In this document: positions 5,929 to 63,678 of the stretch, piece after piece | Layout of the letters: each line of letters opens with the position of its first letter | Position numbering within the stretch: position 1 is the first letter of the stretch | Source of the DNA: a virus | Direction: 5' to 3' (one strand) | IMG/VR virus record: IMGVR_UViG_3300035698_006717 | Coordinates: 41,410 to 105,409 of that record | Length of the DNA: 64,000 nucleotides | The notes under the pieces: generated by a model | What the model saw: only the letters and a program-made list of their open reading frames with translations | What the model was told of the DNA's origin: nothing | Databases searched by the model: none | Program-made: the position numbers and the translations under genes

Positions 5929-5930
5929 CA

Positions 5931-8695: not shown

Positions 8696-8707
8696 GGAGC
8701 ATAAGTC

Positions 8708-12101: not shown

Positions 12102-12232
12102 CTGGAAGGGATCTTATGCTAACTACCTATCACTTAACAGAGGAGTTTGAAAAAAGTCTGAGAAAGTATGAGAGACTCTGCCGAAAACTAAAGTTAATTT
12201 CCCATTAAACGCATTAACAAAAGGAGCCTATC

Positions 12233-12565: not shown

Positions 12566-12636
12566 CACTCTGGTCTTTTCCTTTCTTCCAGAGTGCCTGA
12601 GAGGGCAGAGCGTTGGGGTACGTTCTGTCCCTCTCT
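12564..12636 (+). terminator. tandem stem-loops after the 12233-12565 gene
   Basis: GCACTCTGG...CCAGAGTGC and GAGAGGGCAGAGCGT...ACGTTCTGTCCCTCTC. Confidence 0.55.
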
Positions 12637-14495: not shown

Positions 14496-15095
14496 ATGCT
14501 GAAAAAGCTGAAATTAAAAGTGAAGTGCAGGTCGGTTGACTGCCCAGCTTTTGAAGATTGTGAGCAGTTACCTACCATAGTAACTACCCATACGGGCAAG
14601 GTTGAGAAGCTGAGGTTTCTATTTGTTGGGGTATCCTCTGAAGAGGCTGCTTCACTACAGAAAGTTATCTCAGCAGTCACAGCTAAACTTGGAGCTGTCT
14701 TTAACTATGCGGTAACATATATGGTGCGTGATGATGTTCCTTTGAGATTCTATCTTGATAAGGAAAGCAAATGCTGCTATAAATATCTGTATAGAGATAT
14801 TGCATATTTGAAGCCTAATGTGATAGTTGCTCTAGGAATTGGCCCAAATAATTTACTCAATAAATTTGCTGGTGGAACTGAGTCTGGTTTCCCTGCAAGT
14901 AGTTTTCATGGTTCCCTATGGCCAAGCAATATAGGTGGATACCCAAATGAGATACCTATGCTGTATACTTACAATACTAGTTCTGGCAAGTTAAAGTCAA
15001 TTGCCAAAGATTTGATTAAGGTATATGGTTACTTGAAAGAATTCAAATGTAATCTAGACATCATAAAGATTTCAAAAATGGAGAATGAAAGATGA
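14496..15095 (+). CDS. uracil-DNA glycosylase family 4-like protein, catalytic motifs degenerate
   Basis: C..DCP N-terminus, FLFVG, C...L..DI..LKP.VIVALG; GEAPG replaced by GVSSE and TYHPS by TYNTS. Confidence 0.6.
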   Translation: MLKKLKLKVKCRSVDCPAFEDCEQLPTIVTTHTGKVEKLRFLFVGVSSEEAASLQKVISAVTAKLGAVFNYAVTYMVRDDVPLRFYLDKESKCCYKYLYRDIAYLKPNVIVALGIGPNNLLNKFAGGTESGFPASSFHGSLWPSNIGGYPNEIPMLYTYNTSSGKLKSIAKDLIKVYGYLKEFKCNLDIIKISKMENER

Positions 15096-15199
15096 ATGAT
15101 TACAATACCAAAGATAGGAAACTTGTATATATCAGCTGTGTAACATTTTGCGCAATAATTATTGTTTTGAGTTTAGCCCTGATATGGGAGGCGTTGTGA
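15092..15199 (+). CDS. 35-aa single-TM microprotein (MNDYNTKDRKLVYISCVTFCAIIIVLSLALIWEAL)
   Basis: ATGA overlap with the upstream stop and GTGA overlap with the next ORF (likely true start 15196). Confidence 0.5.
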   Translation: MNDYNTKDRKLVYISCVTFCAIIIVLSLALIWEAL

Positions 15200-15774
15200 G
15201 GATTTCAGAATTAGCTATGTGTTTGAAGGAACTAGAGATAATCAAGTGGCGCCTGATTAACGGAGATTTTATTGAGTGGGATGAGATGTTGTCTGGTAAA
15301 AGGAATTGGCTGAGCGAGAAGGATAGACCACCACAGTATTACCTTGTTAATGAATTCCCGTTCAATTCTGCTTTCTGTTACATGTTCAGAGACTATCAGA
15401 TTATAGATAGGAAGATTGTTAGATCTGGCAAGCCTTACAATACATTTAACTGTCTCTGCCCTCTGTGGCCAAAAGGTAAGAACTGCCATGATATTCACAA
15501 GCCTCAAAAATTCGTTATTGACCAGATTGAATCAATACCAATAGAGACTATTATGAAAATAATCAAGAAGATACCTCTACATAGGGAACAGCTGAAACTG
15601 AAGCACCTATCTAGTATTTGGAACTTTCATTTAAAGGATAAGGTAGTTGGAAGTAGCAACTCTTTGGGTAACGATCTCTAAGCCCCGTAGAGAGCTTGCA
15701 GCTATTATACCCTACTAGGATACCTCTAGACTATTTCAAGCGGTTTAAGGACTATTACAAGGAGCTTAAATAAG

Positions 15775-16812
15775 ATGAGAAAGGTAGATACGAAAGGGAG
15801 CGGTGAAAGATTGTGGAGTAAATTTGGGTTTGAATTTACTTTTGTACACAAGGCTCCATACTTTAATTGTAATGAAATTTCTTGTTCTAAATGCCCAGAG
15901 CGGCACAACGATGAGATATGCGGTAGTGTTCCTACTTCTACTTGCTATTATGATCAAATAGCTCCTTTCAGAAGAAAACTTCACATAGATAAATTCTTTC
16001 ACAGTACTAAAGTAAGTAATGATCAGTCTATTGAATTGAATACTCCACCTTTCAATTCCATAGATGATATCCATGAGTATTATTGCAAATTATCAAGTTT
16101 TATACAGCGTATGCCTTTTGTAGCTAAGTCAGATACTAGGTATGGAGGTGGCGGTCATATCCATGTAGAAATACCCAAGAGGATGATACATGATGAACTG
16201 TACAAGTTTAAGTTCTTTGTCAACTTGTTTTCTGATGTGAGTAATAGACCATATTTGAATTGGATGTTTAATGAATATGGTGATAACATATCTGCTGAGC
16301 CGTATTTGCTTAATGATGATTTGTGTGATAGTTGGAGTGATGATGTTGGTATGCATCTGATGAAATGTAAAGGTTTTGACTTTTGGAAGCCTGTTGGCGG
16401 TTATTGTATTACCAATAGCTGTGATTTTGGAAGACTAGAAGATTGTGATTGGGGAACAAAAGGAACCGCTATCAGCTATTCACCTGCACAGTATGAAAAA
16501 CCAGATACAATTGAGTTTAGGATATTTGACGCACAAGCTACTTGGGAAGAGCTACTGAGTCATGTATTATTTGTGAACAGATATCTACAGTATATAGATC
16601 AAATAACCAGAAAAAATGTCAGGATACCAGTTACAGTTAGGACTAGAAAACAAGTACTTGGGAAATCAGTAGCCAATAAGTGTGTTGGTGAATTCTATAA
16701 GTTCATCTCAGTTCTTGGGCTGCCAAGTTCCCTATACAGATACTGTGAGCAGAACTACTTGGATAGAAAAGCTATTGGGTGCTTGTTACCAGAATGGGTA
16801 GATGAATTATAA
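15775..16812 (+). CDS. putative amidoligase (COOH-NH2 ligase fold)
   Basis: FGFEF, IELNTPP, GGGHIHV, TIEFRIF motifs. Confidence 0.8.
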   Translation: MRKVDTKGSGERLWSKFGFEFTFVHKAPYFNCNEISCSKCPERHNDEICGSVPTSTCYYDQIAPFRRKLHIDKFFHSTKVSNDQSIELNTPPFNSIDDIHEYYCKLSSFIQRMPFVAKSDTRYGGGGHIHVEIPKRMIHDELYKFKFFVNLFSDVSNRPYLNWMFNEYGDNISAEPYLLNDDLCDSWSDDVGMHLMKCKGFDFWKPVGGYCITNSCDFGRLEDCDWGTKGTAISYSPAQYEKPDTIEFRIFDAQATWEELLSHVLFVNRYLQYIDQITRKNVRIPVTVRTRKQVLGKSVANKCVGEFYKFISVLGLPSSLYRYCEQNYLDRKAIGCLLPEWVDEL

Positions 16813-16813
16813 T

Positions 16814-16862
16814 AAAATCATAACTCTTCAGCTAATTCAGATATATACTACTTCTATACCCT
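16814..16862 (+). promoter_or_regulatory. repeated early promoter, copy 4
   Basis: AAAATCA-TAACTC-17 nt-TATACT. Confidence 0.75.
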
Positions 16863-16880
16863 TAAAGAGAGGAGCCTACT

Positions 16881-17270
16881 ATGGCTTGGAATCCTAGTAA
16901 GAAGAAGTGGGAAAGAGATCCAGAACTTCCTGCCCGTAATACCCTTAAGTGGATAGGGCTTACGAGTGAAGAGAAATATGACGTTAATCTTCAGTTGGGT
17001 CATAGCTGGGGATTCCAGAACGTAATACGTGACGTAGAGAACGCCCCGAATGTTGCTATTGAGAAATACTGTGGAGCCTTTCGTATGGGATTTGGGAAGA
17101 AGATAACTATTGATCCTGTTATCCGTAACGCTCTAAGAAAAGAGTTGATGAAGCGTTGCCGTGAAGGAATCTATATCTTTGCCTCTCGTAATGAGAAAAG
17201 AAAGCTGAGACCTGTAGCTCGTATGCATGATGGAGCACCGACTGGTAAACTCGTTAAAGAATCTGCCTGA
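16881..17270 (+). CDS. basic hypothetical early protein
   Basis: GAGGAG RBS after the promoter; hairpin GGGGGATT...AATCCCCC downstream. Confidence 0.7.
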   Translation: MAWNPSKKKWERDPELPARNTLKWIGLTSEEKYDVNLQLGHSWGFQNVIRDVENAPNVAIEKYCGAFRMGFGKKITIDPVIRNALRKELMKRCREGIYIFASRNEKRKLRPVARMHDGAPTGKLVKESA

Positions 17271-18727
17271 TGGCAACAGGGGGGATTGGGTGCTTATTGA
17301 AGCATCGGAATCCCCCCGTATTATTTGAAGGAGGGTTAATGCTATTCTGGTATTTTTGCGCGGCTCGCAACTCTGAACCTTGTTATACTGAATTAGATTC
17401 AGATGATGATCTAGATTTCAATTACAGAACTGGTGGTGATGGATTCTTTACTGTTGATATTTATGTGGGATATTGAAAGGATAGTGCTGTGAAGATTCAA
17501 GATCTAGAGAACGGAATGGTATCCATGACTAGGGTTAGCCCTATTGATGGGAAAGAGAATACCATGATTATTGTATTGGATATGATCAGCTTTATGGCCT
17601 CGCATGCTATATGGGTAGGAGGTACGGATGTGCAAGGTGCTTTCCCTACCCTATCTGCAGATGAGCGTGAATTCATACGTATTGGCATCACACCTGATCA
17701 GTCTAAGGAGATGTATGAAGATGAAGAAGTTTAAAGTTAATGGAGAATGCTTTTGCGAGGGAGGGACTTATGAGGCTCGTTCTCCTATGGAGGCTATGTA
17801 CAAGCATCTCAAAGATGAGAAGAATATAAGTTTGGAGTGTTTCATGGAACCTATATTTAGTGGTAATGTAAAATTAACCACTATAATAGATGGAATAACT
17901 GTTTGCGGCGGTTATGAGATAAGGGAGATGAAGTAATGAAAATAGTATCTCCCAAAACAAAAGTAGAATACATAGTAAGATGGCAGAAATTCGGATGGGT
18001 AGGATCTGCTATCAATGTGTATGTTAAGAAGAAGCTATTTAGTAAGATACCTTACAAGAAGCGTGTATGGCAGATATTTGGAGAAACTTTCTATGATATG
18101 GAAAGGATGTTCCCTGACAAGCTAACAGAACTATTCCATAAAGCCATGAATGAATATGAAGAGTATGTAGAGGCTTGGAATAATTCATTAAACAAAGGAG
18201 ATTGAATGCTGACACCAAAAGACTATCTGACCGCTCTTGATGTTCAAGATGCTTGTAATCTTTCAGGCGTTGTCCTCTCATTTATGGGAGCTTTGGACAA
18301 GATTAGAGAGGAAGTGAAGGATACAGATAAGATCAATAAGCATCCTATATGCGTTCTATATTCTGACAAGATTGCTCACCTAACAGGAACTCAATCTTAT
18401 GCTGTTACTGCTGTAAGTGAAGCATATCAGGCCTGTCACGATAGGAGTCCTGAATGAAAGGATACAAAGTATTTGACTATGTACTACCTGTTTGGTCAAT
18501 CTGTCCTCTAGTAAATGCTGATACATCTTCAACTACTGATGAGGATGATAAGAAGCTTGATAAGTTTCAGGAATGCCTTAATGTCAATATGGAAACTCTG
18601 GAGGCCAAATCTTGGACAATAGATTGGCCAGATTCTGTTGATTCTGCCAAGTACTTTTCTACATATAATGAAGTTGATGGCTATCTTGGAGCAGACGTTG
18701 TTGGTGTAAAGATCTACTTTTTCTATT

Positions 18728-18781
18728 AAAGTCATAACTCGTCAGCTCATTCAAAGGTATATTCTCTTTATACCCGAACCG
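18728..18781 (+). promoter_or_regulatory. repeated early promoter, copy 5
   Basis: AAAGTCA-TAACTC-17 nt-TATATT ... TATACCCGAACCG. Confidence 0.8.
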
Positions 18782-19919
18782 ATAGGAGTCTGATATGACT
18801 GATGGAGAGAAGAAGATTGTTGAGGATTTCGTTCACCATGATATTAGAGATGAGCCTCATGTAATGACAACTATCGGAGATGTGTTTGATGATGTTAATG
18901 TATTTATGAAGAATATTACTGATATTCATAGAGAAGAGAATCGGTTGCTGAAACTTTTGAGAAGCGGAGGGATAGGTGCTTGAATTTTCTGATGGAATGA
19001 GTATTGATACTTCTGGTGATCTGAGAGTAATCTATAAGTCTGATGGATACTATGTTGTAGGTAATGGAATGATGTGCCCTGTGGATAGTCCTGAAGAAGG
19101 CAAAAGTCTGATGGAAGGGATGTCAAAAGATGGGTCAGCCACTAGGTAATGGAGGGTTTATACTTGATAAGCCTCCTGAGATTAACGCCTTCCGTTTGTT
19201 GGCGTTGAAGGGAAGACTAAAGCTTGAAGTGAATACTGGCCTGAAGTTTAGTTCTCGTGGCCCAGCAACTGGTAATATGGTAAGGAAGGAAATTGGTTCA
19301 ACTACTCGTAGTAAGGCAAAGCTGTTGGCTGAATTTGAGACATACTTGAGACAACTAGGTGTATTGAATGATGGGAAGGAGTAACCTATGAAGTTTATGC
19401 TCATACTGATATCTGTTCTATTATTTACCATTAATTCATATTCCGCTGAAATTGAAACATTTGTAACCTTGAGTAATAATCCTGATGCTGGTTGCGTGTT
19501 GATTACCTATTTGGATTATAGGCTATCTGAGGATGAGCCAAATACATATTCTTTGGTAAAGCTGTATGCTGAAGGGTGGAGGTTGGTTCAAGTAATCAGC
19601 ATACCATCTTATAGAAGCAACTTATATGTTTACTACATGGAAAGGATCGGAAAGTGATTTATTATGCAATCCGTACAAAGTACTCTTCAGGAGTCAAAGG
19701 CTCCAGATGTATGGCTAGAGAGGCTGATGGTAGATCAGTATATATACCTTGGGGGTATGAAGTTAATTGTGACAAGAATCATCAGAATGCTGTGAGGAAA
19801 CTTTGTGAGAAGTTAGGATTGTATGGTAAGCTTGCGTCAGGGTCTTTTAAGGGAGAGTTTGTTCACGTCTTTGTAGAAAGATATTACCAATCTAAGTGTA
19901 TTGAATTTGTTAACTAAAG

Positions 19920-19973
19920 AAAGTCATTACTCGTCAGGTGTTTCAGGTATATCTTACCCTTATACCCGAACCG
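19920..19973 (+). promoter_or_regulatory. repeated early promoter, copy 6
   Basis: AAAGTCA-TTACTC-17 nt-TATCTT ... TATACCCGAACCG. Confidence 0.8.
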
Positions 19974-19986
19974 AGGAGAGCTGATT

Positions 19987-20313
19987 ATGGAACTGCCGAA
20001 GAATGTTTGCGCATCGCTGGCTGATAAGAAGCTAATAGTTGATGAGACTAAGAAACTTCTTGCTTATGCGCATGTTGCTGATGATAACCTTACTTGGCGC
20101 TTCCTAGCGGAGATGTTGGAGAATTCCTGCCGAGCTAATGCTGTTATTCAACTAGATTATTCCGAAGATGGTAGAGAAGGAAATAAGACTTGGTATATTA
20201 TAGAAGGGATGGGGATGGGTGAGAAGTTCCTCTATATTGACTGTTCTAAGGCTGATACTCCTAATTGGGAATATTCTTGGAGTGCTATCTATGATTTGAG
20301 AGATGAGAACTGA
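19987..20313 (+). CDS. acidic hypothetical early protein
   Basis: GAGGAG RBS after the promoter. Confidence 0.7.
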   Translation: MELPKNVCASLADKKLIVDETKKLLAYAHVADDNLTWRFLAEMLENSCRANAVIQLDYSEDGREGNKTWYIIEGMGMGEKFLYIDCSKADTPNWEYSWSAIYDLRDEN

Positions 20314-21376
20314 TTATGATCTCAAATTGGAAGTGGAATTTAGTAATGAGATGTATGGGTACGTGGATGGATTGGTATAGAATAGGGTATGGTGAATGGT
20401 TGGGGGGAGAGCTGGTTACTCTTCCCCCGTTTTTACATGAAAGTATTTATCATGGATGTTATGACTGCTCCCTTGGAAGAACTACAAGCGTATGTTGACT
20501 TCTTACATGAGGAGTGGGTAGATGATCTATTCTATTCAATATATGATGTAGTTGCTGAAGAACGCAACCGTGTTGAATCTATCATAGAGTTGAGATCTAA
20601 CCCCTGAAAGGATTTATCATGGAATTCAGAGGATTAACCAAACAGATGATCATCCCTATCGCTAGGCGGGAGGCTAATTTGTGTAACGCTTGGTGGATAC
20701 TAAGAAACGCTCAGAAAGCTAATAATCCTGAAATTACTGCTCAAATGAAAGCTATGGCTAAAGACTTCATAGCTAGAAAGGACACGTGAATGGCTCTGTC
20801 AAAGATGGATAAGAAGGTACTTGCTGATATGTATAATTCTCTAAGAGCAACTATAATGGCTTGCGCTTCAGAAAGTATTGCTTGTGTCAGGTAAGCTGAT
20901 GCTTGTGATAGTGTTGTACATGATAACATTAAGATATGGATGGACAAAGATGACTAAAATTCAGATAGTCCCAAGAATAGGTGATATTGTTATAGTCAAT
21001 TACAAATATATGGTAGCTGATCAAGAGTCTAGTCAGTTTGTTGATTATATATTCAAGCACGTTGCTTTTGCTGGCGCTATTTCTTCATGGAGGTACTGCT
21101 CTACTAAGCCAAGCCTAAGTAGTGTTGTTGTTACATTTGGTACTGTTCAATTTAATTTCTCCGTCATCGAGCTTATTTGGACAGGACTCAATATAGGATC
21201 TGAAAATCCTCATTATGTTGAAGTAAACTACCTATAATCTTCAAACTCCTAGGAAGCCCGTAGAGCTTAGACAAGATCTAACCCTATCCTAGTACGCCTA
21301 AACCCCTTTCAAGACCGTAGCGAGCCGCCTAGGAGCTTGTAATAGGCTTGTAGGTATAGAACCGAACCCGTAAAAG

Positions 21377-21430
21377 AAAGACATTACTATTCAGTCAGTT
21401 CAGATATACCTTATACCTATACCCGAACCG
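21377..21430 (+). promoter_or_regulatory. repeated early promoter, copy 7
   Basis: AAAGACA-TTACTA-17 nt-TACCTT ... TATACCCGAACCG. Confidence 0.75.
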
Positions 21431-22134
21431 ATAGGAGATGAAAGATGGCTAGGATTTTTTGGGACGCCATAGTAGGTGAAGTATTCTTACCCTTGTGGTA
21501 TCGGATATTTTGTAGAACAGTTTGTAAGATTTTTAGTCACAAACCTATGCGTAGCTTCCCTCCTGATTCAAATAGTAGTAATTGTATTGATACCTATTGT
21601 GAACGATGTGGCAAGTATTTGAACTAACCCCTAGGAGAAGATGAAATGAATAAGCAGGAAGTGAAAGATAAGCTGTTGTACTTTGTTCGTCAGTACGGAA
21701 GACGTATTTCCTTGCCAGGTATATATAGTGATGCCTCTGGTATAGGTTCTTTGAGGACTGAAGGTTGTTCTTGTTGTGCTACTTCCTTTAGGTATTCAAA
21801 ACACGATTGTGATGAAAATGACGCTGCAGATGAAATAATTCAATCCTTTACCATGGATGAACAAATAGAAATTGTTAAGGAGAGCTTGAAAGCAACTATC
21901 AAAGAGTACGGCCTTACCCCTTCTGACTTGGAGTAATACCCTAATAACCCTTGAAAGGTGTTAAAATGATTAGATACACTATAAAGCAAGTAGTTATGTA
22001 GCTGTAACAAACCTTATTTATGAACAGCTACGGTGTACACCAGCTGATCTAACAAAAATTCAAAAGAAATTGCTTATAGCTTGTAATAACATGCTAGAAC
22101 TACTCAGAACAATAAAAAAGGAGGTAGAATCAAA

Positions 22135-23127
22135 ATGAGCAAAAATGATAATGAAGAGTGGACAACAGAAAAAGCTCTCAAGGCTTTTGCTAGCCATAGG
22201 TTTAGAGGCATTAATGTAAAAACAAAAGAAAGTATGAGGAGCATTTTGGATAAACTCAATCTAACAAAAGATCAATTGAAGAAACTCAACCTACTAGAAA
22301 AATCAATTCTCAAATGGGAGCAAAATCAACTTATAGCTTCAGAGATGTCAACATTCACAGATCCAGAGAACTACCCACTCCTAAAGGGACAATTCATTAT
22401 AGAAGCAGATACTTGCCCTCTATGCGTAGAATACAATATTGGCTTAACAAATAATAAGATATGCTTAGAGTGCCCTATCTATCAGATGAACAGTAACCAT
22501 AGAGTGTGTAGAGGTACACCTTATATGACGGTAAGCAGATTCATGCTATCTCCAATTCCCAATTGGGAAGGTGTACATTCCGCTTCAAAAGCAGAGGTAG
22601 TCTTTCTTAATCGAGTTAAGAAAGAACTCATACTATCCTATGAATCACCTCCCCACGTAAGGAATAGCAAGAATACCCCTATTACGTTATATAACAGTAA
22701 TTGCGTACCAGTGTTGTCCTTAGATTGTGATGAAGAGAATGAATCTATGGTAGAAGTAAGAGATGTTAAGGATGGTATGATAATAGGTGAGTTAGAGGTT
22801 GATATGTGTTCTACTGAATACTTAGATTGCATAGACAATATACTACCCTCAGACTCAGAGTTTGCACAGATTAAGGATTGGGACAAAGCAATTGAGAAGG
22901 AAAAGAAGCAATTATTGACTTTCTCTCTAATAGCCCCAAACCTTTGGACTGACACCGATACTGAAAGGTTCTCTATCTATGCTTTTGAGAAGACTAATGG
23001 TAAGACAGGAGTCAAGTATATGGCTTATAATATATTTGATAATGAAGAGCAGAAGGTGATAGGTAAGGACTCTAAGTTGTATACATTTACTGCTGCTGCT
23101 GAGTATGTTAATAACAAGAAGTGGTAG
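22135..23127 (+). CDS. hypothetical protein with Cys-rich domain
   Basis: AGGAGG RBS; CPLC...CLECPI...C motif. Confidence 0.7.
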   Translation: MSKNDNEEWTTEKALKAFASHRFRGINVKTKESMRSILDKLNLTKDQLKKLNLLEKSILKWEQNQLIASEMSTFTDPENYPLLKGQFIIEADTCPLCVEYNIGLTNNKICLECPIYQMNSNHRVCRGTPYMTVSRFMLSPIPNWEGVHSASKAEVVFLNRVKKELILSYESPPHVRNSKNTPITLYNSNCVPVLSLDCDEENESMVEVRDVKDGMIIGELEVDMCSTEYLDCIDNILPSDSEFAQIKDWDKAIEKEKKQLLTFSLIAPNLWTDTDTERFSIYAFEKTNGKTGVKYMAYNIFDNEEQKVIGKDSKLYTFTAAAEYVNNKKW

Positions 23128-23229
23128 ATGTACTACTATCTTGCTACTATGTGGTATACTAGGGAGTAGTGAACATCACTTAGGCATTTTGACTACTGTG
23201 TGGTATGATACTATTATACTATTATGTGA

Positions 23230-23495
23230 TTTATGATTGATTTAATACATGCTTATGCCACATCATGATCAGTCATGATCAAAGCATGCTTTCCACCGCA
23301 TATTCACGCCATTCATGATATCTACCTGATATATTCAGACTAATCAAAATTTCAGCTTCATGATATCTACAGTGTTATTTGCAAATAATCATTAAAATCA
23401 CATCATTGAGAAAATTCATTGGTTAGTCATAGTCATTGAATAGCAAAAATCATTGAAGATGTACATTCAGTGATTAGCAAAAGTCAATGACCTTG
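23230..23495. repeat. non-coding cluster of TCATGA / TCA(A/T)TG(A/G) motifs
   Basis: TCATGATC x2, TTCATGATATCTAC x2 (23312, 23357), repeated TCATTGA/TCATTGG/TCAGTGA/GTCAATGAC. Confidence 0.75.
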
Positions 23496-23598
23496 CCAAC
23501 TCAAGGATTATCTTTCTAAAGTCATAATATATCAAGACTGAATAGTATACCTTTCTAATAGGCGGGAATCCCCTAACCCCTACCCTAGGAGGAAGAAA

Positions 23599-23961
23599 AT
23601 GAACCATCTGTTGTTAGAAAAAGCTATTAAGGATTTGGCGGTAAAGCCTCTAGGTAAGTTCTCTGAAACTGAGGAAATGTTTAAGCGCTCCGGCTCTATA
23701 GGAGCTATTGCACTTGCACCCTACCTAAAAGGGGATAATGAATACTATGCTGACGAGGGAGACGAAGGCTTCTTGATGGAATGGGTTGAAATGTTTGATA
23801 AGCTAGAACCTCTAGCGGGTGCGGTTGAATTTACGGATACTGTTTCTGGTTGTGACGTAAATGTTAAGTGTTTCTTTGGAACTATACTTGTTAAGTGGAT
23901 AAATGAGGTAGGGGGAGTTTCCCTATCTGTTTTTGATATAGAAGCGTATATGGTTTTGTAG
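23599..23961 (+). CDS. acidic early protein, paralog A
   Basis: Aligns end to end with 24596-24952 (LG.FS, LKGD.EY, SGC.V.VKCF.G.ILV.W.N..G..S.S.FDI). Confidence 0.8.
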   Translation: MNHLLLEKAIKDLAVKPLGKFSETEEMFKRSGSIGAIALAPYLKGDNEYYADEGDEGFLMEWVEMFDKLEPLAGAVEFTDTVSGCDVNVKCFFGTILVKWINEVGGVSLSVFDIEAYMVL

Positions 23962-23967
23962 AAAAAG

Positions 23968-24022
23968 AAAGACATTACTCGTCAGCTAGTTCGGGTATAC
24001 CTTACCTCTATACCCGTAACCG
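23968..24022 (+). promoter_or_regulatory. repeated early promoter, copy 9 (more divergent copies at 23518 and ~24529)
   Basis: AAAGACA-TTACTC-17 nt-TACCTT ... TATACCCGTAACCG. Confidence 0.75.
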
Positions 24023-24035
24023 TAGGAGGAAGAAG

Positions 24036-24371
24036 ATGAAAGGTTCTACTGTTTATGAAAGCCTAGAAGATCTAGTGAAGGTACTAGGTGATAGTAAAGA
24101 TTGCAAATACTTGTTAGAAGATATAAAGGAACGGCTTGAAAAGGCTTTGGGAGAAAGAAAACCTTATAGCGTATCTTGGGTAAGTACTGAAACTGATTAT
24201 GCTACTGCTACCGCTATGAGCTTGTTAGTCGATAGCAGAGAGGGTGATACTTGGGTAAGCGAAGAAGGTGAAGAATTCTATAAGCTGATTAATGCGGTTG
24301 ATGAAACTCTAATCGTTATAGAGATGAATATTCCTGGTATGAGTGATTACCTTCTAGTGACGTATATTTAA
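24036..24371 (+). CDS. acidic hypothetical early protein
   Basis: AGGAGG RBS; about 23 D/E vs 11 K/R; no Gln or His. Confidence 0.75.
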   Translation: MKGSTVYESLEDLVKVLGDSKDCKYLLEDIKERLEKALGERKPYSVSWVSTETDYATATAMSLLVDSREGDTWVSEEGEEFYKLINAVDETLIVIEMNIPGMSDYLLVTYI

Positions 24372-24384
24372 AGGAGATCTGATC

Positions 24385-24405
24385 AGGGGGCTTGCCCCCT
24401 TTCCC
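24385..24405 (+). terminator. putative intrinsic terminator
   Basis: AGGGGG-CTTG-CCCCCT hairpin followed by a short pyrimidine run. Confidence 0.5.
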
Positions 24406-24413
24406 ATTAACCA

Positions 24414-24516
24414 GCAAAAGTCAATGACCTGAGGAAAATTCAATGGCACAAATTCAACCCAGAAATTCAATGATCAAAACTCAATGATCAAAACTCAATC
24501 GTCAAAACTCAATGAC
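24414..24516. repeat. 14-bp tandem-like repeats AAAA(C/T)TCAATGA(T/C)C
   Basis: AAAAGTCAATGAC, AAATTCAATGG, AAATTCAATGATC, AAAACTCAATGATC, AAAACTCAATCGTC, AAAACTCAATGAC. Confidence 0.85.
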
Positions 24517-24595
24517 GAGTATTATATAGACAGGGCTAATCAAGCTTGATTAGAGTATATTACCCTTATACCCTAACCCCTCTAGGAGGCAGAAG

Positions 24596-24952
24596 ATGAG
24601 ACAGCACGCGTTGGCTAGTGAGATTAAGAAAGCGGCGGGAGGTAAAGCACTAGGTGAGTTCTCCCTAGCGAACCATATGTTTGATACTTCGGACGTAGTA
24701 GTAGCAAAGGCTTTGACCCCCTTCCTTAAGGGAGATGACGAGTATTTCGTTAGCGACGATGAGGAGGCTTGGAAAGATGATTACCTGATTAGCTTTATTG
24801 ATATAATCCCTACGGCGGGAGAGGTACGGTTTGACGATACTGACTCTGGTTGCTCCGTACACGTTAAGTGCTTCTACGGACTAATCCTAGTACGTTGGAC
24901 TAATAGCGCAGGGGCTGATTCTATCTCTGCTTTTGATATACCTGAGTTATAG
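24596..24952 (+). CDS. acidic early protein, paralog B
   Basis: Paralog of 23599-23961; AGGAGG RBS. Confidence 0.8.
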   Translation: MRQHALASEIKKAAGGKALGEFSLANHMFDTSDVVVAKALTPFLKGDDEYFVSDDEEAWKDDYLISFIDIIPTAGEVRFDDTDSGCSVHVKCFYGLILVRWTNSAGADSISAFDIPEL

Positions 24953-24967
24953 AAAGGATCTGAATTT

Positions 24968-25000
24968 GGCTCTCCTACCCTAAGGAGAGCCTTCATTTTA
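24968..25000 (+). terminator. intrinsic terminator
   Basis: GGCTCTCCT-loop-AGGAGAGCC then TTCATTTT. Confidence 0.65.
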
Positions 25001-25009
25001 CATACCATA

Positions 25010-25450
25010 CGTCATTGGTTTGTACTGTATATGTAAGGACATATGGTAAGCCAATGAGTTGTTCTGTATATGTAATGACATATGTTAGAGCAGGTGATAG
25101 AGCATATGGTAAACCAATGACTATGTAATGTATGTAATAGCATATGGTAAGACAAGTGATAGGACATATGTAAAGAGCAAATGGTATGTGTGTGATACCA
25201 ATGTACTGTACTGTAAATGTAAGGACATATGGTAAACCAATGACCTGCTATATGTGTGTGTAATAGCATATGGTAGGACAAATGTAAGTTCAAATGATAT
25301 GCTATACATTGAGCTGTTATATGTAAATGTAATAGCAAATGTAAGGACATATGGTAAACCAATGACTATGTAATGGAATGTTAAACAAATTGTTAAACAA
25401 ATGTTGTGAAATGTTAAACCAGTGAAATAAATGTAAAATGTTTACCAAGT
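25010..25450. repeat. degenerate array of CANNTG/CANTG motifs, often 12 bp apart
   Basis: e.g. CATATG-ttagag-CAGGTG-atagag-CATATG-gtaaac-CAATG; 30-bp AAATGTAAGGACATATGGTAAACCAATGAC at 25215 and 25337. Confidence 0.9.
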
Positions 25451-26107
25451 TGATATCTACCATATACCATTGGCTAGTTGATTTTATTTGAAACTGATAT
25501 CCTTGTTGCTGCTGTGATTAGCTTGATTTCACAATACACTGATTTCTTTTGGCTTTTCCCCGTTTTGCCATGATTTGGTAATTCAATGACTTTCTCGGAT
25601 TTCCGAAAAAAAGCGGAAAAATCCGAATTTACCCTAAATCGGGCGAATTACCCGAAGTCGGTATAAATACCCGAAAGCGGGTAGAAGGTACTATTTAAGG
25701 GGCTTAAATAGGGGCCGTTTAAGGGTTAAATACGTTTAGAGCCTAGGAAGGTTATTTAAGCGGATTAAGGGAAAACTAATTAACCGTATTAGGTAAATCT
25801 TCTAAGTCCTTTAAAATAGGGTAGTTACGGAGGGCGGGCTTTTAGGCGGATTCTATTTAAACGGTTAAAAAGATAGTTTAAGGTTTTTAAACTAGATAGA
25901 GATTCTAGTTTAAATCGCTGAAGGCGAATTAAATAAAACGTCTTTTTTAGTACTATTAAGACGTTTTTTAAGGCGACTGCTCGCGAGCAAATCTACTTAA
26001 GATATTAAGTTTTCCCCGATAGGGGCTTTAATCGAGTATATTTACTATAACGCCGCTACCCGCTACGGGCTACGGCGATAATCTATTACCCTTATAGGGG
26101 GTTTCTT

Positions 26108-26377
26108 ATGGTCTCGAATTCACTTACTCTAATAGCTTCGGTGACGAACGATCTACCTACTATATATAGGGTCGCTACGGTTAACCCCTTCGCCGCCCTA
26201 CTACCTATCGCCGCCATAGTCGCCGCCGTATACCTTATAGCTTTAACGGTCTACGTGGCGAACGACTACGCCGTTAATACTAATTTACTAAGAATAGAAA
26301 GAGAGGAGCCTATAACCTTAAGAAAGAGCTTTATAGTCGAATACAATAACGGAACTAATAAAACCGTAAACGCTTAG
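26108..26377 (+). CDS. small membrane protein
   Basis: Hydrophobic segment FAALLPIAAIVAAVYLIALTVYV; AGGGGG RBS. Confidence 0.65.
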   Translation: MVSNSLTLIASVTNDLPTIYRVATVNPFAALLPIAAIVAAVYLIALTVYVANDYAVNTNLLRIEREEPITLRKSFIVEYNNGTNKTVNA

Positions 26378-26432
26378 TCTATTACTTCGAATTCACCAAA
26401 TTTTTAAACCGTAAAAGAAAAGAGTTACTACT

Positions 26433-26960
26433 ATGACTACGAAAAAGAATACTACCGCCGCTCCCGTTTCTAAGATCGTTCGCCACGCCGCCGCCGCTCC
26501 CGTAGAGACTCCCGCCGCCGCTACCGTAGAGAAGGTTTCGCTACTATCGGAAAAGGATTTTATTTCTTACGCCGAAAAGAGCGGGACTCCCGCCCTAAAA
26601 TCTTTCGGAAACGTAGGGAGTCGAGTATACGCGAATCCTACCTTTTCGGGAACTACGGCCTTTATTATAGCGGCTCTTTCTACCGTCGATACCAAACGTA
26701 CTAGTTTTACGGTCGCCGATTTCGATTCGGGTATACGGTCGATGAAAACGAAGGAGAACTGGGAACGACTCGACGCTATTTTTAATACGTTCCGTTCCCG
26801 TTTCGCGAGTAACCGTAAAGGCGAAAAACCTTCCCTCGCGAGCAAGTATAAAAGTCCCGTAAAATCTTTACGGACTAGCGGAGTATATAAAGCGTTCGAC
26901 GTTTCCGCTATCGGGACTCCCGAACTAAGAAAGTCCTTCGGATTCGCGGCGGGGAAATAG
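26433..26960 (+). CDS. basic hypothetical protein with Ala/Pro-rich N-terminus (possible DNA binder)
   Basis: 175-aa ORF followed by a strong terminator; no Gln or Cys. Confidence 0.75.
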   Translation: MTTKKNTTAAPVSKIVRHAAAAPVETPAAATVEKVSLLSEKDFISYAEKSGTPALKSFGNVGSRVYANPTFSGTTAFIIAALSTVDTKRTSFTVADFDSGIRSMKTKENWERLDAIFNTFRSRFASNRKGEKPSLASKYKSPVKSLRTSGVYKAFDVSAIGTPELRKSFGFAAGK

Positions 26961-26989
26961 ATCGTTCGCCACCAATAGGCGGATAATAT

Positions 26990-27018
26990 AGGGTAGTCTT
27001 CGGACTACCCTTTTTTTA
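26990..27018 (+). terminator. rho-independent terminator with UUCG tetraloop
   Basis: AGGGTAGTC-TTCG-GACTACCCT-TTTTTT. Confidence 0.92.
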
Positions 27019-27190
27019 TACCTTCCCCGCTCCCTTCCTTCCTTCGTTCGTTCGCCAGACTCCCTCCCTTCCTATAATACCCTAAATCGCCGCTACGGGA
27101 CTTTCGCCCTCATAGGTATAGCTAGGATAGGGTATATCTTCCCCGCCTTATACGGGCCTTCTACGGGCCTTATATAAGCTATTTAGAATA

Positions 27191-27300
27191 TACCTTAAAT
27201 CGGGTAGAATACCCGAATTTATATAGTCGGGCTTTTTACCCGAAGTCGGGTAGAATACCTTATCGGGTAAAATACCCGAAGTAGGGTAATATACCCTAAT
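27191..27300. repeat. cluster of TACCCGA/TCGGGTA motifs in both orientations (matching cluster at 25621-25690)
   Basis: TCGGGTAGAATACCCGA, TACCCGAAGTCGGGTAGAATACC, TCGGGTAAAATACCCGAA. Confidence 0.85.
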
Positions 27301-27580
27301 AATTTAAGCGCTTAAGGGGTAGGGCGTATGCGAACGATTTTATTTTCTAGGTAGCCCTACTTTGGCACCCAGCACACACCGTGAACATTTTTGCCAAGAT
27401 TACCATGCTCAGAATATTTCAGGCAATACTACAAATGAAAAAGCCCACATACCGAAGCATGCAGGCTGAAAAATATTTACAGAAATTTTTTCTGCTGAAT
27501 TTACAATATATACTTCTTGGAATCATCCTTATAGAAAATGGATATAGTTACATCTAGATAGAATTTCATCGCCCAACTCC

Positions 27581-28934: not shown

Positions 28935-29617
28935 TCTTTTCCTCCATATATTTGGATATGTCTATTTTAACAAATGCGTATATTGATAGAACAAATATTG
29001 CTATCCAGCTACTAACTGGAACATGCTGCACAGTATAGAATTCTAGATACATAGAATAGCCTATGCTACCTAGTATGATTGGCATTAGAATCATACTTGC
29101 CAATAGGATACCTCTAATCTTGTTAATCACAAAACACCTCACAGGTTATAAGTTAGCCTCTCCCTTTCTTAAATAATATAAGAAAGAATAACCCTTGTAG
29201 TAATGTTTTTATTAAGGAAGTATCAGATGTACTCTTTACGCTTCATAGTCTTGCGACATTTTCTGCAAGTGTCATAAAGTCTGTTATTAGCATATACCTC
29301 TAAGTTGCGCCTATATCTTACTAGTTCTTCTTTAGAGAGCTTGCCAACTTCAACAGATTTTAAGAATTTGAATTTGCCCATTTGTTACAGTACTCACTCA
29401 CCCTTGTTTTTTGGGTTTGCCGTGTGTGATACCATTGCCACAGTGTGGGCAGAACTTCCACGACTTCTTGAGTTTCTTCATACAGCTGCAATAGTGCGTC
29501 ATGTTCTTTAGCATCCTTTCAAAGGCGTTGATCTTCGGCGAGTCCTTTGGGTCAAACGGTGAGCTAGGGCACCCATACAAGACAACTATGTCATCCATTT
29601 ACAACTCCTATCCTTGT

Positions 29618-29692
29618 TTAATCAATCATGAGAATCATGCCGATTACCGCGCTCACCCACCCAGATATGAATCCCGTTATCCACTCACTCAT
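29618..29692 (-). CDS. 24-aa hydrophobic microprotein (paralog 1)
   Basis: MSEWITGFISGWVSAVIGMILMID; GAGGAGGAG RBS. Confidence 0.6.
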   Translation of the reverse strand: MSEWITGFISGWVSAVIGMILMID

Positions 29693-29820
29693 CTCTCCTC
29701 CTCTGCCTGAGTTTTGGGTGAACCGCGGTAGAGGCTTGCCCCAATGTTGAGTTAATGCGTGCCGCCAATGCACTGGCTACGCAAAACCGTTTAGCTTGCC
29801 GCAGTTCACTAGGTTGTTTC

Positions 29821-29950
29821 ATACAACGGTTAAGCAACGGGTGATAGTTTGCCGATACACTCATCGCAGAAGAACCGACCTGCCGTACTTTTATAACATT
29901 TCTTAGGCTCACCACAAGACTCGCAAATTTCATCCATTGCTGTGTTGTGT
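29821..29950 (-). mobile_element. attC-like recombination site (130 bp)
   Basis: Minus strand ACACAAC-ac-AGCAATGGATGAAATTTGC ... GCAAACTATCACCCGTTGCT-taacc-GTTGTAT; arms pair with G-T wobbles and one extra base. Confidence 0.7.
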
Positions 29951-30115
29951 GAAGTTTTTAGAAACTCCTCTTTTTCCTTAAAAATTGAGCGGAGTATTAC
30001 TATTGCGCCCTGTTTGATAAAAGACCTCGCCTTGTACTCTACAAGGGCCACCTTTAATTCGTCAAAGCTCATTTTTACCACAATAAAGTCCTTTCTAAAA
30101 ATTTGCGAAGCGAAC

Positions 30116-30245
30116 ACACAACGTATTGCAAATGGGTGCTGGCCCACTAACATTCCCGTCCAGAACACTCCACGGCCTCCCCACGCATATCGCACGATTC
30201 TACATGACAACCATCGCACAGGCTGGCACCCTTTGCGTGTTGTGT
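30116..30245 (-). mobile_element. attC-like recombination site (130 bp)
   Basis: Minus strand ACACAAC-ac-GCAAAGGGTGCCAGCC ... GGCCAGCACCCATTTGC-aatac-GTTGTGT; one extrahelical base. Confidence 0.75.
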
Positions 30246-30398
30246 GCTGTGGCTTGGTGGCTCCTCTTGTTCTGAGTTTGGCAAGTTGGCAATAATCTTC
30301 GTGCGTATGAACTTGTAGACCTTACCCAGTTCTGAATGTGACAACTTAGATAAATCCTCGTGGATGTAGCCAAGAATACCATCACGATAATCACTCAT
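30147..30398 (-). CDS. hypothetical cassette-like gene reading into the attC
   Basis: AGGAG RBS; lies between GTTGTGTGCAATG and the 30116-30245 attC. Confidence 0.6.
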   Translation of the reverse strand: MSDYRDGILGYIHEDLSKLSHSELGKVYKFIRTKIIANLPNSEQEEPPSHSTQHAKGASLCDGCHVESCDMRGEAVECSGREC

Positions 30399-30453
30399 AA
30401 CCCAAACTCCTATAAAAGATTTTCACCAAACATTGCACACAACGTCTGTCGTG

Positions 30454-31536
30454 TTACGAAGTCGCCCTTGGCGATTTGGGCCGAACGACGTGAGCCGTAA
30501 CATTTCTCTTTTGTTCCGCCTTATCAGGATAAGTCTTTTGGTTCTTCACAATAGATTTGGTTTGTACCCGTCTATTCTTTACTAAAATTCTAAAATACGG
30601 GCACTTTCCATTGATTGATAGATCCTTTTCATCATTCCCTTTTCTGAACTTAACTATTTCAAATTGCTTTGGATTGAACTTATGGAGAAATGTTATTGGC
30701 ACACCTATAAACCCTTTGTAGTCTGATGGTATATCCTTTGTCTTATTAACATTTATACCATCATAGTTGTCATACTTGGGATATTGAGCTTCATTTCCGT
30801 AGTATCTTTTGGTGAGTGGAATATCTTCGTGCCGTTTAAACGTATCTAAGTTAGTCAACCATAGACAATTGTTTGGAGAAACGATTCTGTTCCCAAAACT
30901 ATCTATCCGAGCTTCTGTTCCATAAAGTTCATAGTGTTCGGGAACAATAAAACCAGAGACCCCTCTACCAATGTTTATTCCTAACCATGCTTTGTTTTCT
31001 TTTATAAGCTTGAAATCTTCCTTATAAGTTATTGCATTGATATTCCCAATTATCAAGAACTTTTTATGGTACTTGACCAATTGAGCTACGTATTCTCTGA
31101 ATAATGAAAATGGAGGGTTAGTAACTACAATGTCAGACTGTTTCAGTAGTTCAATGCTTTCTGAACAACGGAAGTCACCATCCCCAGCAAAGTGAATAAT
31201 GTCGGTTGAGCTTGGTTTGCTTCTTTCACCCTCCGTACCAGTATATTCAAAGTAGAAACCATTTTCATCTTCCGCGGTGTTAAACAAATCTCTTACTTGT
31301 TCCCTGTAACAAGCCGCTATCAATTTCTTGAGACCTAATTCCTCAAAGTTTGAAGCAAAGTAACTATAAAAGTTACTAATTTGAGGGTCATCGCAATTGC
31401 AAAAGACCACCTTGTCTTTAAAGTGGCTCTTATAATGCTTCAATTCACTTTCTATATCTGAAAGTTGCGTGTAGAACTCATCGCTTTTTGATTTCTTAGC
31501 TTTTTGTAATAATCTGTTTGTTGCTTTCCTTGTCAT
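30454..31536 (-). CDS. adenine-specific DNA methyltransferase, M.EcoRI family
   Basis: DEFYT, CNCDDP..SNF, GDGDFRC.E, VVTNPPFSLFREY, YPKYDNYD.INV, GVPITFL.K.NP.QFEI. Confidence 0.9.
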   Translation of the reverse strand: MTRKATNRLLQKAKKSKSDEFYTQLSDIESELKHYKSHFKDKVVFCNCDDPQISNFYSYFASNFEELGLKKLIAACYREQVRDLFNTAEDENGFYFEYTGTEGERSKPSSTDIIHFAGDGDFRCSESIELLKQSDIVVTNPPFSLFREYVAQLVKYHKKFLIIGNINAITYKEDFKLIKENKAWLGINIGRGVSGFIVPEHYELYGTEARIDSFGNRIVSPNNCLWLTNLDTFKRHEDIPLTKRYYGNEAQYPKYDNYDGINVNKTKDIPSDYKGFIGVPITFLHKFNPKQFEIVKFRKGNDEKDLSINGKCPYFRILVKNRRVQTKSIVKNQKTYPDKAEQKRNVTAHVVRPKSPRATS

Positions 31537-32453
31537 TTTTCTACCTGTCTCAATTCAAAGGGTTTTCTTATTCATTTGCCTCTAATGTGTAATGCGTCTT
31601 GGGCAGTACGCTTCATCCTACAGCAAGTGCGGTAGCTTGCAGAAGCCTGAACTATGTTAAATGATCTGTAAGGCTCTCACAACAAACCATACGAAGCCTC
31701 GATTCAAGAGCGGCAATTTTATCCTTTAGCTGTTGTACGTCTGTGGGCTGAGTACATTGTCCTTTAGGTGGCGGCGGACGCACACCTTTCGGACGAATGC
31801 CAACACCACCTTTTGATACTAAGCCTTCCGTAATATCGCTATGCATGCTTGCCACCTTTATAATAAATTTAAGAAGACCATTGCGTGTAACTTGTGCTAG
31901 GGTGTCATTTGATTTATTTCACAACCAGCAGCAGGTGGGTTAATCACTCCCCCTTGTTATGTACCCACTTGGAAAACCATTCAATGGCCTCGCGTTCACG
32001 CATACCAATTGTGTTCTCATCAATAAACCGCCTTGACAGTTCAAGGATAGTCTTCTCAGCCTCACTGTCGGTTGGTGCTGGTGCTTTAGCATCTTCTACG
32101 CACAGCGCACAAACCTGTATAGTCTCGTGCTTGACAATCCCGTGGGTAATACATCGTCTCATATTTATCGGCATCTCTCACTCCTCCTCTGTCTGAGTAT
32201 TGGCCCTGAACTGCTTGTACCTTGTTTGAAATATCTCATAGAACTCTTGGTGCCCCGATTTAAACAAAGCGCCATAAAGCTCACTCAGTAGCTCTACAGC
32301 CTCGCTCTCGGTGGGTGCTGGGGGAGGGGTGGTTAGCCGTTCTTTGATAAAATCCCACGCATCAAGCTCAAAACCTATTGATCCGCAAGCGATGATATTA
32401 CCAATTATCTCCTGTGCTAAGTCGATGTTCATTTCCATATAATCCCTCTCCCC

Positions 32454-32531
32454 CTACTGTGTTAAAACAACCCAAGTCAGATATGCACTGATGACACACC
32501 CTGAAACAAAGCCGCTAAGCCAATCCTTCAT
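32454..32531 (-). CDS. 25-aa hydrophobic microprotein (paralog 2)
   Basis: MKDWLSGFVSGCVISAYLTWVVLTQ; GAGGAGGAG RBS. Confidence 0.6.
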   Translation of the reverse strand: MKDWLSGFVSGCVISAYLTWVVLTQ

Positions 32532-32569
32532 CACTCCTCCTCTGTCTGAGTATTGGGTATGTAATCGCT

Positions 32570-32969
32570 ATTCGCCGCGCAGAACACATCCCACGGAATG
32601 GTTTCTTCTGGCGGGTCTCCAACCAGTATATGTACATTTACTTTCATTCTATTATGAATCCTCTCAGGATTACTCCATTAGTGAATTTAACATATGACTC
32701 TTCTCTATTGCCATGCCCACAACATGCAAAATCAACTCCAGGGAGTGTACCCAGACAAGCATCAGGGTCTCCTATCTTTCCACATTTCTTACATGGCACA
32801 TCAGTAACAGGATTCTTACTATCAGAGAATACCCAACCACCTAACGGAGAGATCTCAATCTCATGACCATGAAAATACCCTTTAGTCATACCGCTTCCTT
32901 ATTTAATTATGATTCGCCGCGCAGAACACATCCCACGGAATGGTTTCTTCTGGCGGGTCTCCAACCAGT
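32570..32969. repeat. 58-bp perfect direct repeat (32570-32627 and 32912-32969) flanking one gene
   Basis: ATTCGCCGCGCAGAACACATCCCACGGAATGGTTTCTTCTGGCGGGTCTCCAACCAGT twice. Confidence 0.95.
32644..32889 (-). CDS. Cys-rich hypothetical protein inserted between the 58-bp repeats
   Basis: PCKKCG...DACLG.LPGV..ACCGHG; own RBS AAGGAAG. Confidence 0.75.
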   Translation of the reverse strand: MTKGYFHGHEIEISPLGGWVFSDSKNPVTDVPCKKCGKIGDPDACLGTLPGVDFACCGHGNREESYVKFTNGVILRGFIIE

Positions 32970-33031
32970 TTTCGATACTCGTTCCTCGCCCACGAGTATG
33001 CCGTCAACACGCTTTCGTCCATATCATCCCC

Positions 33032-33106
33032 CTACTGTGTTAAAACAATCCATGTCAGAAGCGCACTGAACCACCCAGCAACAAAACCTACAAGCCAACT
33101 CTTCAT
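33032..33106 (-). CDS. 24-aa hydrophobic microprotein (paralog 3)
   Basis: MKSWLVGFVAGWFSALLTWIVLTQ; GAGGAGGAG RBS. Confidence 0.6.
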   Translation of the reverse strand: MKSWLVGFVAGWFSALLTWIVLTQ

Positions 33107-33938
33107 TCCCTCTCCTCCTCTGTCTGAGTGGTGGCATAGCGTTCTCCCAATAGTGCGGGTTTTCCTCTTGCCACGGATCGTTTGTCATAAGGTCTGCAAT
33201 GGCGAAAATGTTATCAGAGGTGTCCACAACTTTTACATCAAGAATGTCTTGAACTCTGTGCCATCGCTTCATCTCTCACCCTCCCTTGTTTTTCTGGTAA
33301 GCCACCCAACGGAAGAAGTCGTATTACAAGATGTTCTTCATCCGTCTATCGTTGCATTTCTTACACAAATATCTCTTGCGGTCGGCAAGCTGGCAGTCAC
33401 ACTTGGAAGAGTCAACCCACTTACCACACGAGTTTAGACGCTCTGTCTTTGAGCATAGAACGTTCTTGCATTTTCGTTCGTATACACGAATAACTGAGTA
33501 ATCCCAATCGTGTATCCCAATCATGCATCCTAGTGGCATCTCTCGCTCTCCTGTTATATGGCAATGGGCTATTGACAAAATAGCCCCCAACATACTTTTG
33601 GGTTAAATTGTTACTTCGTTGCCGTCAACTTCTTCACCATCTACCCTATCAACAGCTTCACATATTTCTTCAGTTTTAGCGTAATGGAAGCTGTCCAAAG
33701 GCTTAGATCCTTCACATGCTCTATTTGATTCATCACAGCCATCTTTGAAACCATCTACATATCTGTTCTTCTCTGCCTTTGAAAGATTGTGATCCCAGAT
33801 GCGATTTGTGATAGCAATTACTTCTTTGAAATTCATAGTAGCTCCTAATAGATTGTTTCAGTTTAAGTGGGTAGGAGGCCGCCGCCCCCTACCCTTCCCC
33901 ATCATCACACACAAAAGGGCAGTTCATAACGCTGCACT

Positions 33939-34223
33939 TTATTCTTTATGATTCTTGTTAGCATTAGCAAAGGCAAACCCTGCCCCGCTCATTAATCCAC
34001 CGCCAATAAGAATTTGTACCAACAGGCTAATCAGTTGAGATTTCTCAGCAGGAGTAATATCCAATCCTGCTCTATTTAGGAACAGTATCAAAGCACTCAC
34101 TACAGAGAAAGATATCACAGAATAGATTGCTCTCCTAATCCCCTTCTTCGCTGATATCTTTTTGTTTGACTTCTTGACTCTGTCCTTTGCTTCTCTCACC
34201 ATTTTTCTTGGATTGTAGTCCAT
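33939..34223 (-). CDS. two-TM membrane protein, possible holin
   Basis: Basic N-terminus, two hydrophobic segments, short charged C-terminus. Confidence 0.45.
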   Translation of the reverse strand: MDYNPRKMVREAKDRVKKSNKKISAKKGIRRAIYSVISFSVVSALILFLNRAGLDITPAEKSQLISLLVQILIGGGLMSGAGFAFANANKNHKE

Positions 34224-63676: not shown

Positions 63677-63678
63677 TT

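Follow-up and report, generated by a model that had tools for sequence, protein, structure and literature searches.

Short contiguous repeat arrays are known from several systems in which one small protein binds cooperatively, among them the omega heptads upstream of three promoters in pSM19035, ParR-parC, and the 12-bp repeats of TubR-tubC. A 12-bp periodic signal also marks the nucleation sites of the phi29 protein p6 near the genome ends, where a multimer that reads bendability and no fixed word coats the DNA and controls early transcription and replication. Phage T7 reportedly carries short repeats, SRL and SRR, beside its terminal repetition; in the T7 sequence we counted twelve CCTAAAG cores with a 13-bp period at 174–340, directly abutting the 160-bp terminal repeat. 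In phage T5, the stop signal is found at the inner edge of the terminal repeat, within 1.6 kb of untranslated, repeat-rich DNA that is organised around DnaA boxes and conserved as a cis site (doi 10.1101/866236).

Compositionally biased patches near early modules form a further point of comparison. The Wifcevirus ECML-117 has a CA/TG-poor island (6600–8400) inside its terminal repeat (~5030–8800), which we placed from the record ends of Ro157lw, Mansfield (PhageTerm-annotated) and WFC. Its most TG-skewed stretch (4500–4850; 33 TG and 1 CA per 200 bp) sits just outside one repeat edge, and its most CA-skewed stretch (8600–8900) at the other. In the Pbunavirus phiKTN6, the most TG-skewed patch of the genome is followed by the most CA-skewed one in a single non-coding gap (8150–9200); in both phages this layout is symmetric, resembling a sub-telomeric strand bias. 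For F8 and 14-1, a hypermodified thymine in a TG motif has been described (preprint PMC12191111).

The array described here lies in a virus contig of 105,409 bp, the final 64 kb of which we refer to as the window; positions are those of the window unless stated otherwise. The contig is classed as linear in IMG/VR and as 100% complete by CheckV, with a GC content of 38% and a CpG observed-to-expected ratio (o/e) of 0.43. It encodes a portal, a capsid, tail genes, a DnaB-like helicase, a primase, a DnaE-like polymerase, ThyX and SbcCD. The nearest cultured phages are distant (portal 23% identity, TerL 27% identity); judged by these comparisons, the phage is without a close cultured relative, and it appears to be lytic. 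Both contig ends fall within one repetitive Ser-rich gene region, indicating an assembly gap due to the repeat and no genome end; the physical termini must therefore lie somewhere within the contig. The contig break region (first 1–1340; window 63673–64000) encodes long serine-rich repeats of the SASESxSVSPSA type.

From ~9.5 to 24.6 kb, the window holds a series of small genes, each with a 58-nt promoter-leader cassette and its own terminator. The cassette, AAAGAAAGTCATTACTCGTCAG..TTCAGGTATA..TTATACCCGAACC..AGGAGG, is conserved through 9500–24600, with six strong copies at 16810–24522 and weaker ones at 9503–12052, and is unlike a sigma-70 promoter in appearance. AGGAGG (Shine-Dalgarno) precedes the real genes of this phage. 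Because rightward genes extend to 24952 and leftward genes begin from ~27.5 kb, the array and the island that follows it lie at a point of transcription convergence, with which the maximum of the cumulative GC skew coincides. An intrinsic terminator (24968–24991, plus strand; a 9-bp stem with six GC pairs, then a T-rich tail) closes the last small early gene (24596–24952), and the array begins directly after it. From 24953 to 26107 there is no supported ORF, and direct and inverted repeats are dense; the longest non-coding zone noted in the window contains the array.

A preliminary description of the locus had claimed about 15 CANNTG hexamers, many exactly 12 bp apart, together with several CANTG in non-coding DNA. 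Recounting bore this out. Exactly 15 CANNTG lie in 25010–25590 (eight CATATG, five CAAATG, and one each of CAGGTG and CAAGTG), against 2.2 expected per 581 bp from the genome mean, a maximum of 8 elsewhere in the genome, and 4.3 ± 1.9 (maximum 11) in dinucleotide-preserving shuffles of the array region. The same interval contains 11 CANTG, for which the genome rate is 0.73 per 581 bp and the shuffle maximum 10. Seven of the 14 CANNTG spacings are 12 bp (39, 12, 12, 38, 12, 12, 13, 48, 41, 12, 12, 45, 12 and 50 along the array), and lag 12 gave the top autocorrelation peak (0.406), with the phased part limited to 25029–25440. The sole ORFs are minus-strand frames that cross the repeats; they start with TTG or ATG and are not preceded by a Shine-Dalgarno sequence. 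A coding array was rejected, the minus-strand ORFs (25012–25362 and others) being without start signals.

Two other possible identities of the array were also set aside. A structured RNA was rejected on the absence of an Rfam match in the array and on weak folding (fold z-scores −2.4 and −0.5). A cluster of early promoters was rejected because a PWM based on six copies of the 58-nt cassette had no significant match on the phased units on either strand; within the array gap it gave marginal sub-block matches only, in the spacer at 25535–25560.

To define the unit, we ran an EM motif search from random 12-mers, which converged on AWATGkTAArrC with 25 sites, 24 of them in 25029–25440. This core array (plus strand) holds ~24 copies of the unit, CAWATG followed by an A three bases on, in six runs of two to five units phased at exactly 12 bp. 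A column test was then made on 18 units cut strictly by the 12-bp phase, with the motif not used. Mismatches per unit column were 2, 6, 3, 0, 0, 8, 9, 0, 10, 9, 10 and 1 (out of 18): T4, G5 and A8 are invariant, C12, A1 and A3 nearly so, and the remaining six columns almost free. This heterogeneity (chi2 = 55.3, P = 7e-8) was reached by 0 of 5,000 simulated uniform decays. The array is thus a constrained feature and not a uniformly decaying repeat, and a neutral repeat that keeps CA..TG no better than its spacers does not describe it. The earlier statement that only CA..TG is conserved held in part: the CA and TG columns are among the invariant ones, but A3 and A8 are kept equally well, making the unit a 12-mer and not a bare CA-N2-TG.

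The core array also shows higher-order periods of ~62 and ~122 bp at 66–83% identity, which points to recent block duplication; the likeness of the units comes partly from this, so they are not fully independent. Such duplication, and the fact that no function-linked protein was found, would suit a neutral or nearly neutral minisatellite that arose in a tolerant non-coding gap through slippage and the duplication of blocks. We nevertheless regard this as improbable: conservation differs strongly between columns, the associated box family recurs in two other gaps at different periods, and the words concentrated here are selected against everywhere else, most strongly next door.

These boxes punctuate the array. 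A CCAATGA box (25051–25057, plus strand) closes run 1, and a box of this kind directly closes four of the six runs, with more boxes between runs and after the last one. Further plus-strand boxes lie at 25114, 25198 (CCAATGT), 25237, 25359 and 25419 (CCAGTGA), and inverted copies at 25012, 25306 and 25536. The stretch 25367–25466 is 76% AT (99.8th genome percentile) and carries TGTTAAACAAAT twice. It is followed by a TGAT(A/T)T-rich spacer (25441–25582, plus strand) that has words (TGATATCTAC, TGATTAGCTTGAT) in common with the two upstream gaps, and then by the last box, TCAATGAC (25583–25590, plus strand), whose final base is the last before the CA/TG-free island.

The AT-rich 100 bp has 12-bp repeats of its own and lies immediately 3' of the units, which raises the question of a replication origin, with iteron-like repeats for an initiator beside an unwinding stretch. 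The array is the window's highest-scoring tandem repeat, the phage encodes its own DnaB-like helicase, primase and DnaE-like polymerase, and the layout of three site clusters with small genes between them is reminiscent of plasmid iteron and control clusters. Several features count against this, and we think an origin rather unlikely. There is no initiator-like gene nearby and no DnaA box (no TTWTNCACA within 23–28 kb; 5 in the whole window against 7.7 expected), the replication genes are 20–40 kb away, and the 12-bp units are shorter than classic iterons of 17–22 bp. A site at a GC-skew maximum with convergent transcription is, moreover, the mark of a terminus in cells, although skew is confounded with gene orientation here.

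The array is not alone. Three adjacent non-coding gaps, together 1.2% of the genome, hold 23 of the 132 genomic CANTG (1.7 expected), with 7 in 23128–23598 (P = 3e-6), 5 in 24372–24595 (P = 1e-5) and 11 in the array gap (P = 1e-9); they also hold 14 of the 16 genomic YCAATGAY. In the previous gap, the sister array (24421–24515, plus strand) consists of five TCAATGA boxes, and a 14-bp tandem, AAACTCAATGATCA (×3.8), accounts for three of these; the array stands upstream of gene 24596, whose promoter is without the standard upstream element. The one two gaps upstream (23403–23490, minus strand) has six CANTG boxes, mostly in minus orientation, at spacings of 13, 17, 17, 17 and 17 bp. Its 470-bp non-coding gap (23128–23598) contains TCATGAT(C/A) five times just upstream of the CANTG boxes and six CATG against 0.9 expected. 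Gaps 1 and 2 have in common an 18-nt element, AGCAAAAGTCAATGACCT, around one box, and the array gap has several words in common with both. Each of the three arrays falls between one rightward transcription unit and the next, that at 25029–25590 being the largest, and the two promoters that follow gaps 1 and 2 have either no counterpart or a weak one to the upstream element found in the standard early cassette.

The CA/TG-free island (25591–27360, plus strand) has o/e values of 0.11 for CA, 0.09 for TG, 1.75 for CG and 1.53 for TA, and holds two plus-strand ORFs. The array had been said to abut it directly, and it does so to the base: the last box ends at 25590, with its TG at 25587, and the next CA or TG comes at 25919. 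Clusters of the palindrome TACCCGAAnnCGGGTA, which includes the 3' core of the promoter cassette, ATACCCGAA, bound the island on both sides (25624–25686 and 27186–27299). Within the island, a terminator-like hairpin at ~25937–25970 separates a 350-nt CA/TG-free unit without an ORF. The first island ORF starts 520–1080 bp from the array, and no promoter could be placed there; both points count against the array being a loading site.

The further proposal that the array is the island's compositional mirror image did not survive. CA is not enriched in the array (32 against 31.6 expected); what is in excess is TG (75 against 44) and ATG (38 against 14). The CA+TG density of the array, 39 per 200 bp, is matched at three other genome sites, and its TG-over-CA skew is unremarkable at the 200-bp scale. 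We rejected the mirror image on the CA count and the matched density.

Word avoidance across the genome, scored against a maximal-order Markov expectation, singles out the words that are gathered in the three gaps. The most under-represented 5-mers of the genome are CAATG/CATTG, with an o/e of 0.34 (z = −13), and CACTG/CAGTG, with an o/e of 0.38 (z = −8). Among 5-mer families, avoidance is greatest for CANTG (o/e 0.36, z = −13), and among 4-mers, ranked by z, for CATG (o/e 0.50, z = −18). CANNTG (o/e 0.87) and TGNCA (1.14) are not avoided genome-wide. By region, the o/e of CANTG is 0.10 in the early cassettes, 0.21–0.37 in the head, glycan, replication and tail blocks, and 0.89 in an accessory block at 29.3–33.95 kb, where 20 copies are tolerated. 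This block (29300–33950) is missing from the relative G001, making it probably a recent acquisition, and contains an EcoRI-type adenine methyltransferase (PF13651, E = 1e-128). The avoidance is shared by contigs of relatives (CANTG o/e 0.42–0.43, CATG 0.45–0.58).

The idea that one factor reads CA-Nn-TG draws support in a modified form, for CATG and CANTG, which are purged genome-wide yet concentrated here; CANNTG itself is not avoided. Wide purging combined with clustering in three gaps fits a factor that reads closely spaced CA..TG, and a reader of the words CATG and CANTG is plausible. That the core CANNTG of the 12-mer is not itself an avoided word (o/e 0.87) counts against the array as a loading site. 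The signature of a TG mark was considered and rejected, since neither Pbunavirus, with thymidine hypermodification in a TG context, nor Wifcevirus avoids CANTG; a search of the genome with the HMUDK_hel profile gave no match, ThyX alone being present.

Palindromes are avoided genome-wide as well, with 2 CCGG against 158 expected and 1 GGWCC against 35, and so many avoided palindromes point to heavy restriction pressure. Other avoided palindromes in the whole genome are TCGA, GATC, AAGCTT, ACTAGT, GGATCC, GAGCTC, AACGTT and CATG. The avoidance also argues against blanket protection by base modification. Restriction pressure, evident in CCGG, GGWCC, AAGCTT and CATG, and the concentration of avoided CANTG in the array are what a restriction decoy would call for, in which clustered target-like sites absorb a host nuclease reading CATG or CANTG. 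Such a decoy is highly improbable: on the same molecule it would get the genome cut, a literature search found no CANTG-specific enzyme, the accessory block tolerates its 20 CANTG, and the boxes share flanks (YCAATGAY) beyond the needs of a restriction site.

We searched the phage for a protein that might occupy the array. Profile searches of the whole genome gave no match for HTH_3 (PF01381), RHH_1 (PF01402), HU or ParA-like (PF13614) proteins, a result that speaks against a partition centromere. Neighbouring ORFs matched no Pfam or PHROGs family, and the adjacent 118-aa protein is acidic. For the two island proteins, one of them basic and 175 aa long, we found no homologues and no family matches; three short contigs carry the island protein. 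No binding protein for the array was found in the genome, which again counts against the loading-site reading.

Relatives at 66–77% protein identity are present among IMG/VR and JGI contigs, none of which crosses the array, and a metagenome scan found two relatives, neither extending to it. A 19-mer of the array had one chance match in viral contigs, inside a peptidase gene; searches of viral contigs for the flanking proteins, the promoter cassette and the terminator pattern returned nothing, and the two-box pattern retrieved from prokaryote genomes unrelated tandem repeats only, most of them apparently coding. One relative, Ga0207997_1000118, reaches the right side of the island: a 17-nt word and the leftward terminator (90% identity over 51 nt) are retained, and the contig breaks off 30 nt into the island, counted from the position that corresponds to its right edge, with the last 33 nt CA/TG-free. 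Three CANTG lie in its last 400 bp, the densest cluster of that locus. This is a hint that the island border is retained in the relative, with boxes next to it. At this end of the contig (12951–13401), CACTGATAACATTTTTGCCA occurs twice in the 290 bp adjoining the island edge, against once in this phage. A more distant relative, Ga0315291_10108021 (42% identity over a 221-aa protein), has a 190-bp CA/TG-poor intergenic stretch (1215–1400) with 8 CA+TG per 200 bp; it is rich in TTTAA and GGGTAG words, as is the non-coding part of the island.

The stop of the Ga0207997_1000118 contig just inside the island edge is one of several observations that would suit an element of the genome end, with the island being, or lying within, a direct terminal repeat and the array forming a sub-terminal repeat block that serves concatemer processing or packaging, as in the T7 SRL/SRR, or an entry pause, as in the T5 injection-stop region. 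The cores of T7 and the repeat-rich region of T5 both adjoin a terminal repeat (for T5, doi 10.1101/866236), and ECML-117 has its CA/TG-poor island inside one, flanked by TG- and CA-skewed stretches. This contig breaks in a repetitive gene, placing the true ends internally, and the array zone is the longest non-coding one noted in the window. The nearest cultured phages by TerL, at 27% identity only, include some with long terminal repeats. Against this stand the missing DnaA boxes, the fact that three arrays before three genes are more than a single stop or pac site would require, and the nature of the Wifcevirus patch, which is GT-rich without CA..TG units and alike in position only. On balance, we consider a genome-end element unlikely.

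What the constrained columns, the phasing and the word counts point to is a protein-binding array. Since the array concentrates CANTG that is purged elsewhere in the genome, it probably serves a DNA-binding factor as a docking site, and we predict with considerable confidence that it functions as a protein-binding array. Its more specific role can be proposed tentatively, as an account that may well turn out otherwise: a cis-acting loading site for a sequence-specific factor, from the phage or the host, controlling the border between the early genes and the island. The array would be occupied by many molecules of the factor bound next to one another, which, given the 12-bp unit, would follow a spiral path around the helix. 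Together they would form a nucleoprotein block that governs the boundary separating the early-gene cassettes from the island, its most likely role being control (repression, insulation or activation) of transcription of the island unit. Island DNA could not carry such sites, which would then be collected just outside it.

We favour border control on four grounds: there are three arrays, each between successive rightward transcription units; the two promoters past the smaller arrays are without the standard upstream element or match it weakly; the neighbouring early genes are almost free of stray boxes; and the island itself is unable to hold such sites. A broader idea, which we offer as speculative and somewhat doubtful, is that a single CA..TG-reading factor shaped the lineage, with the first-used island cleared of all CA/TG, CATG and CANTG purged from the rest of the genome, most strongly in the early genes, and the remainder gathered in three border arrays. 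Under a single factor of this kind, the arrays might capture or use it, for example to halt DNA entry, wall off the island or time its expression. Should one CA..TG reader indeed underlie all three patterns, the array would be a natural bait for finding it; should there be no single reader, the array would still be a candidate control site, end-processing site or origin in a lineage without a cultured relative.

Set beside the systems introduced above, the array shares with omega- and ParR-type systems the arrangement of several phased short-repeat arrays, direct and inverted, before several transcription units; here these lie at 23403–23490, 24421–24515 and 25029–25590. It differs from them in that neither an RHH or HTH protein nor a partition ATPase was found in the genome, and the phage appears lytic. 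With the phi29 p6 sites it has the 12-bp periodicity in common; the difference is the fixed word here and that no p6-like or HU-like gene was found. The likeness to Wifcevirus and Pbunavirus is that of a biased non-coding patch by a module with a CA/TG-poor early island, in Wifcevirus, as here, just after a terminator. Their patches, however, are GT-rich with almost no CA, are unphased and lie ~1.8 kb from the island, and their genomes do not avoid CANTG (o/e 1.04–1.07), so the likeness is positional only.

The T5 injection-stop region (Repeat Region 3; Davison, doi 10.1101/866236) resembles this locus as a long untranslated, repeat-dense zone near the first-used early genes. T5, however, has large inverted repeats with paired DnaA boxes, which are missing here, and in this phage no homologues were found of A1 and A2, the early proteins on which the two-step DNA entry of T5 depends. 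In anatomy, the closest match by sequence comparison is the set of T7 short repeats: in each case a non-coding, one-orientation array of some 12 or more cores, with a 12–13-bp period and variable spacers, abuts a special terminal or early module. The core sequences are unrelated, the T7 array abuts a proven terminal repeat and this one a CA/TG-free island that would be such a repeat under the genome-end reading, and the array here is larger (~25 units), with closing boxes and two sister arrays. Repeat arrays next to terminal or early modules are thus already known; what is new is the combination of a position-constrained, 12-bp phased array with a lineage-wide purge of CATG and CANTG and an abutting CA/TG-free island.
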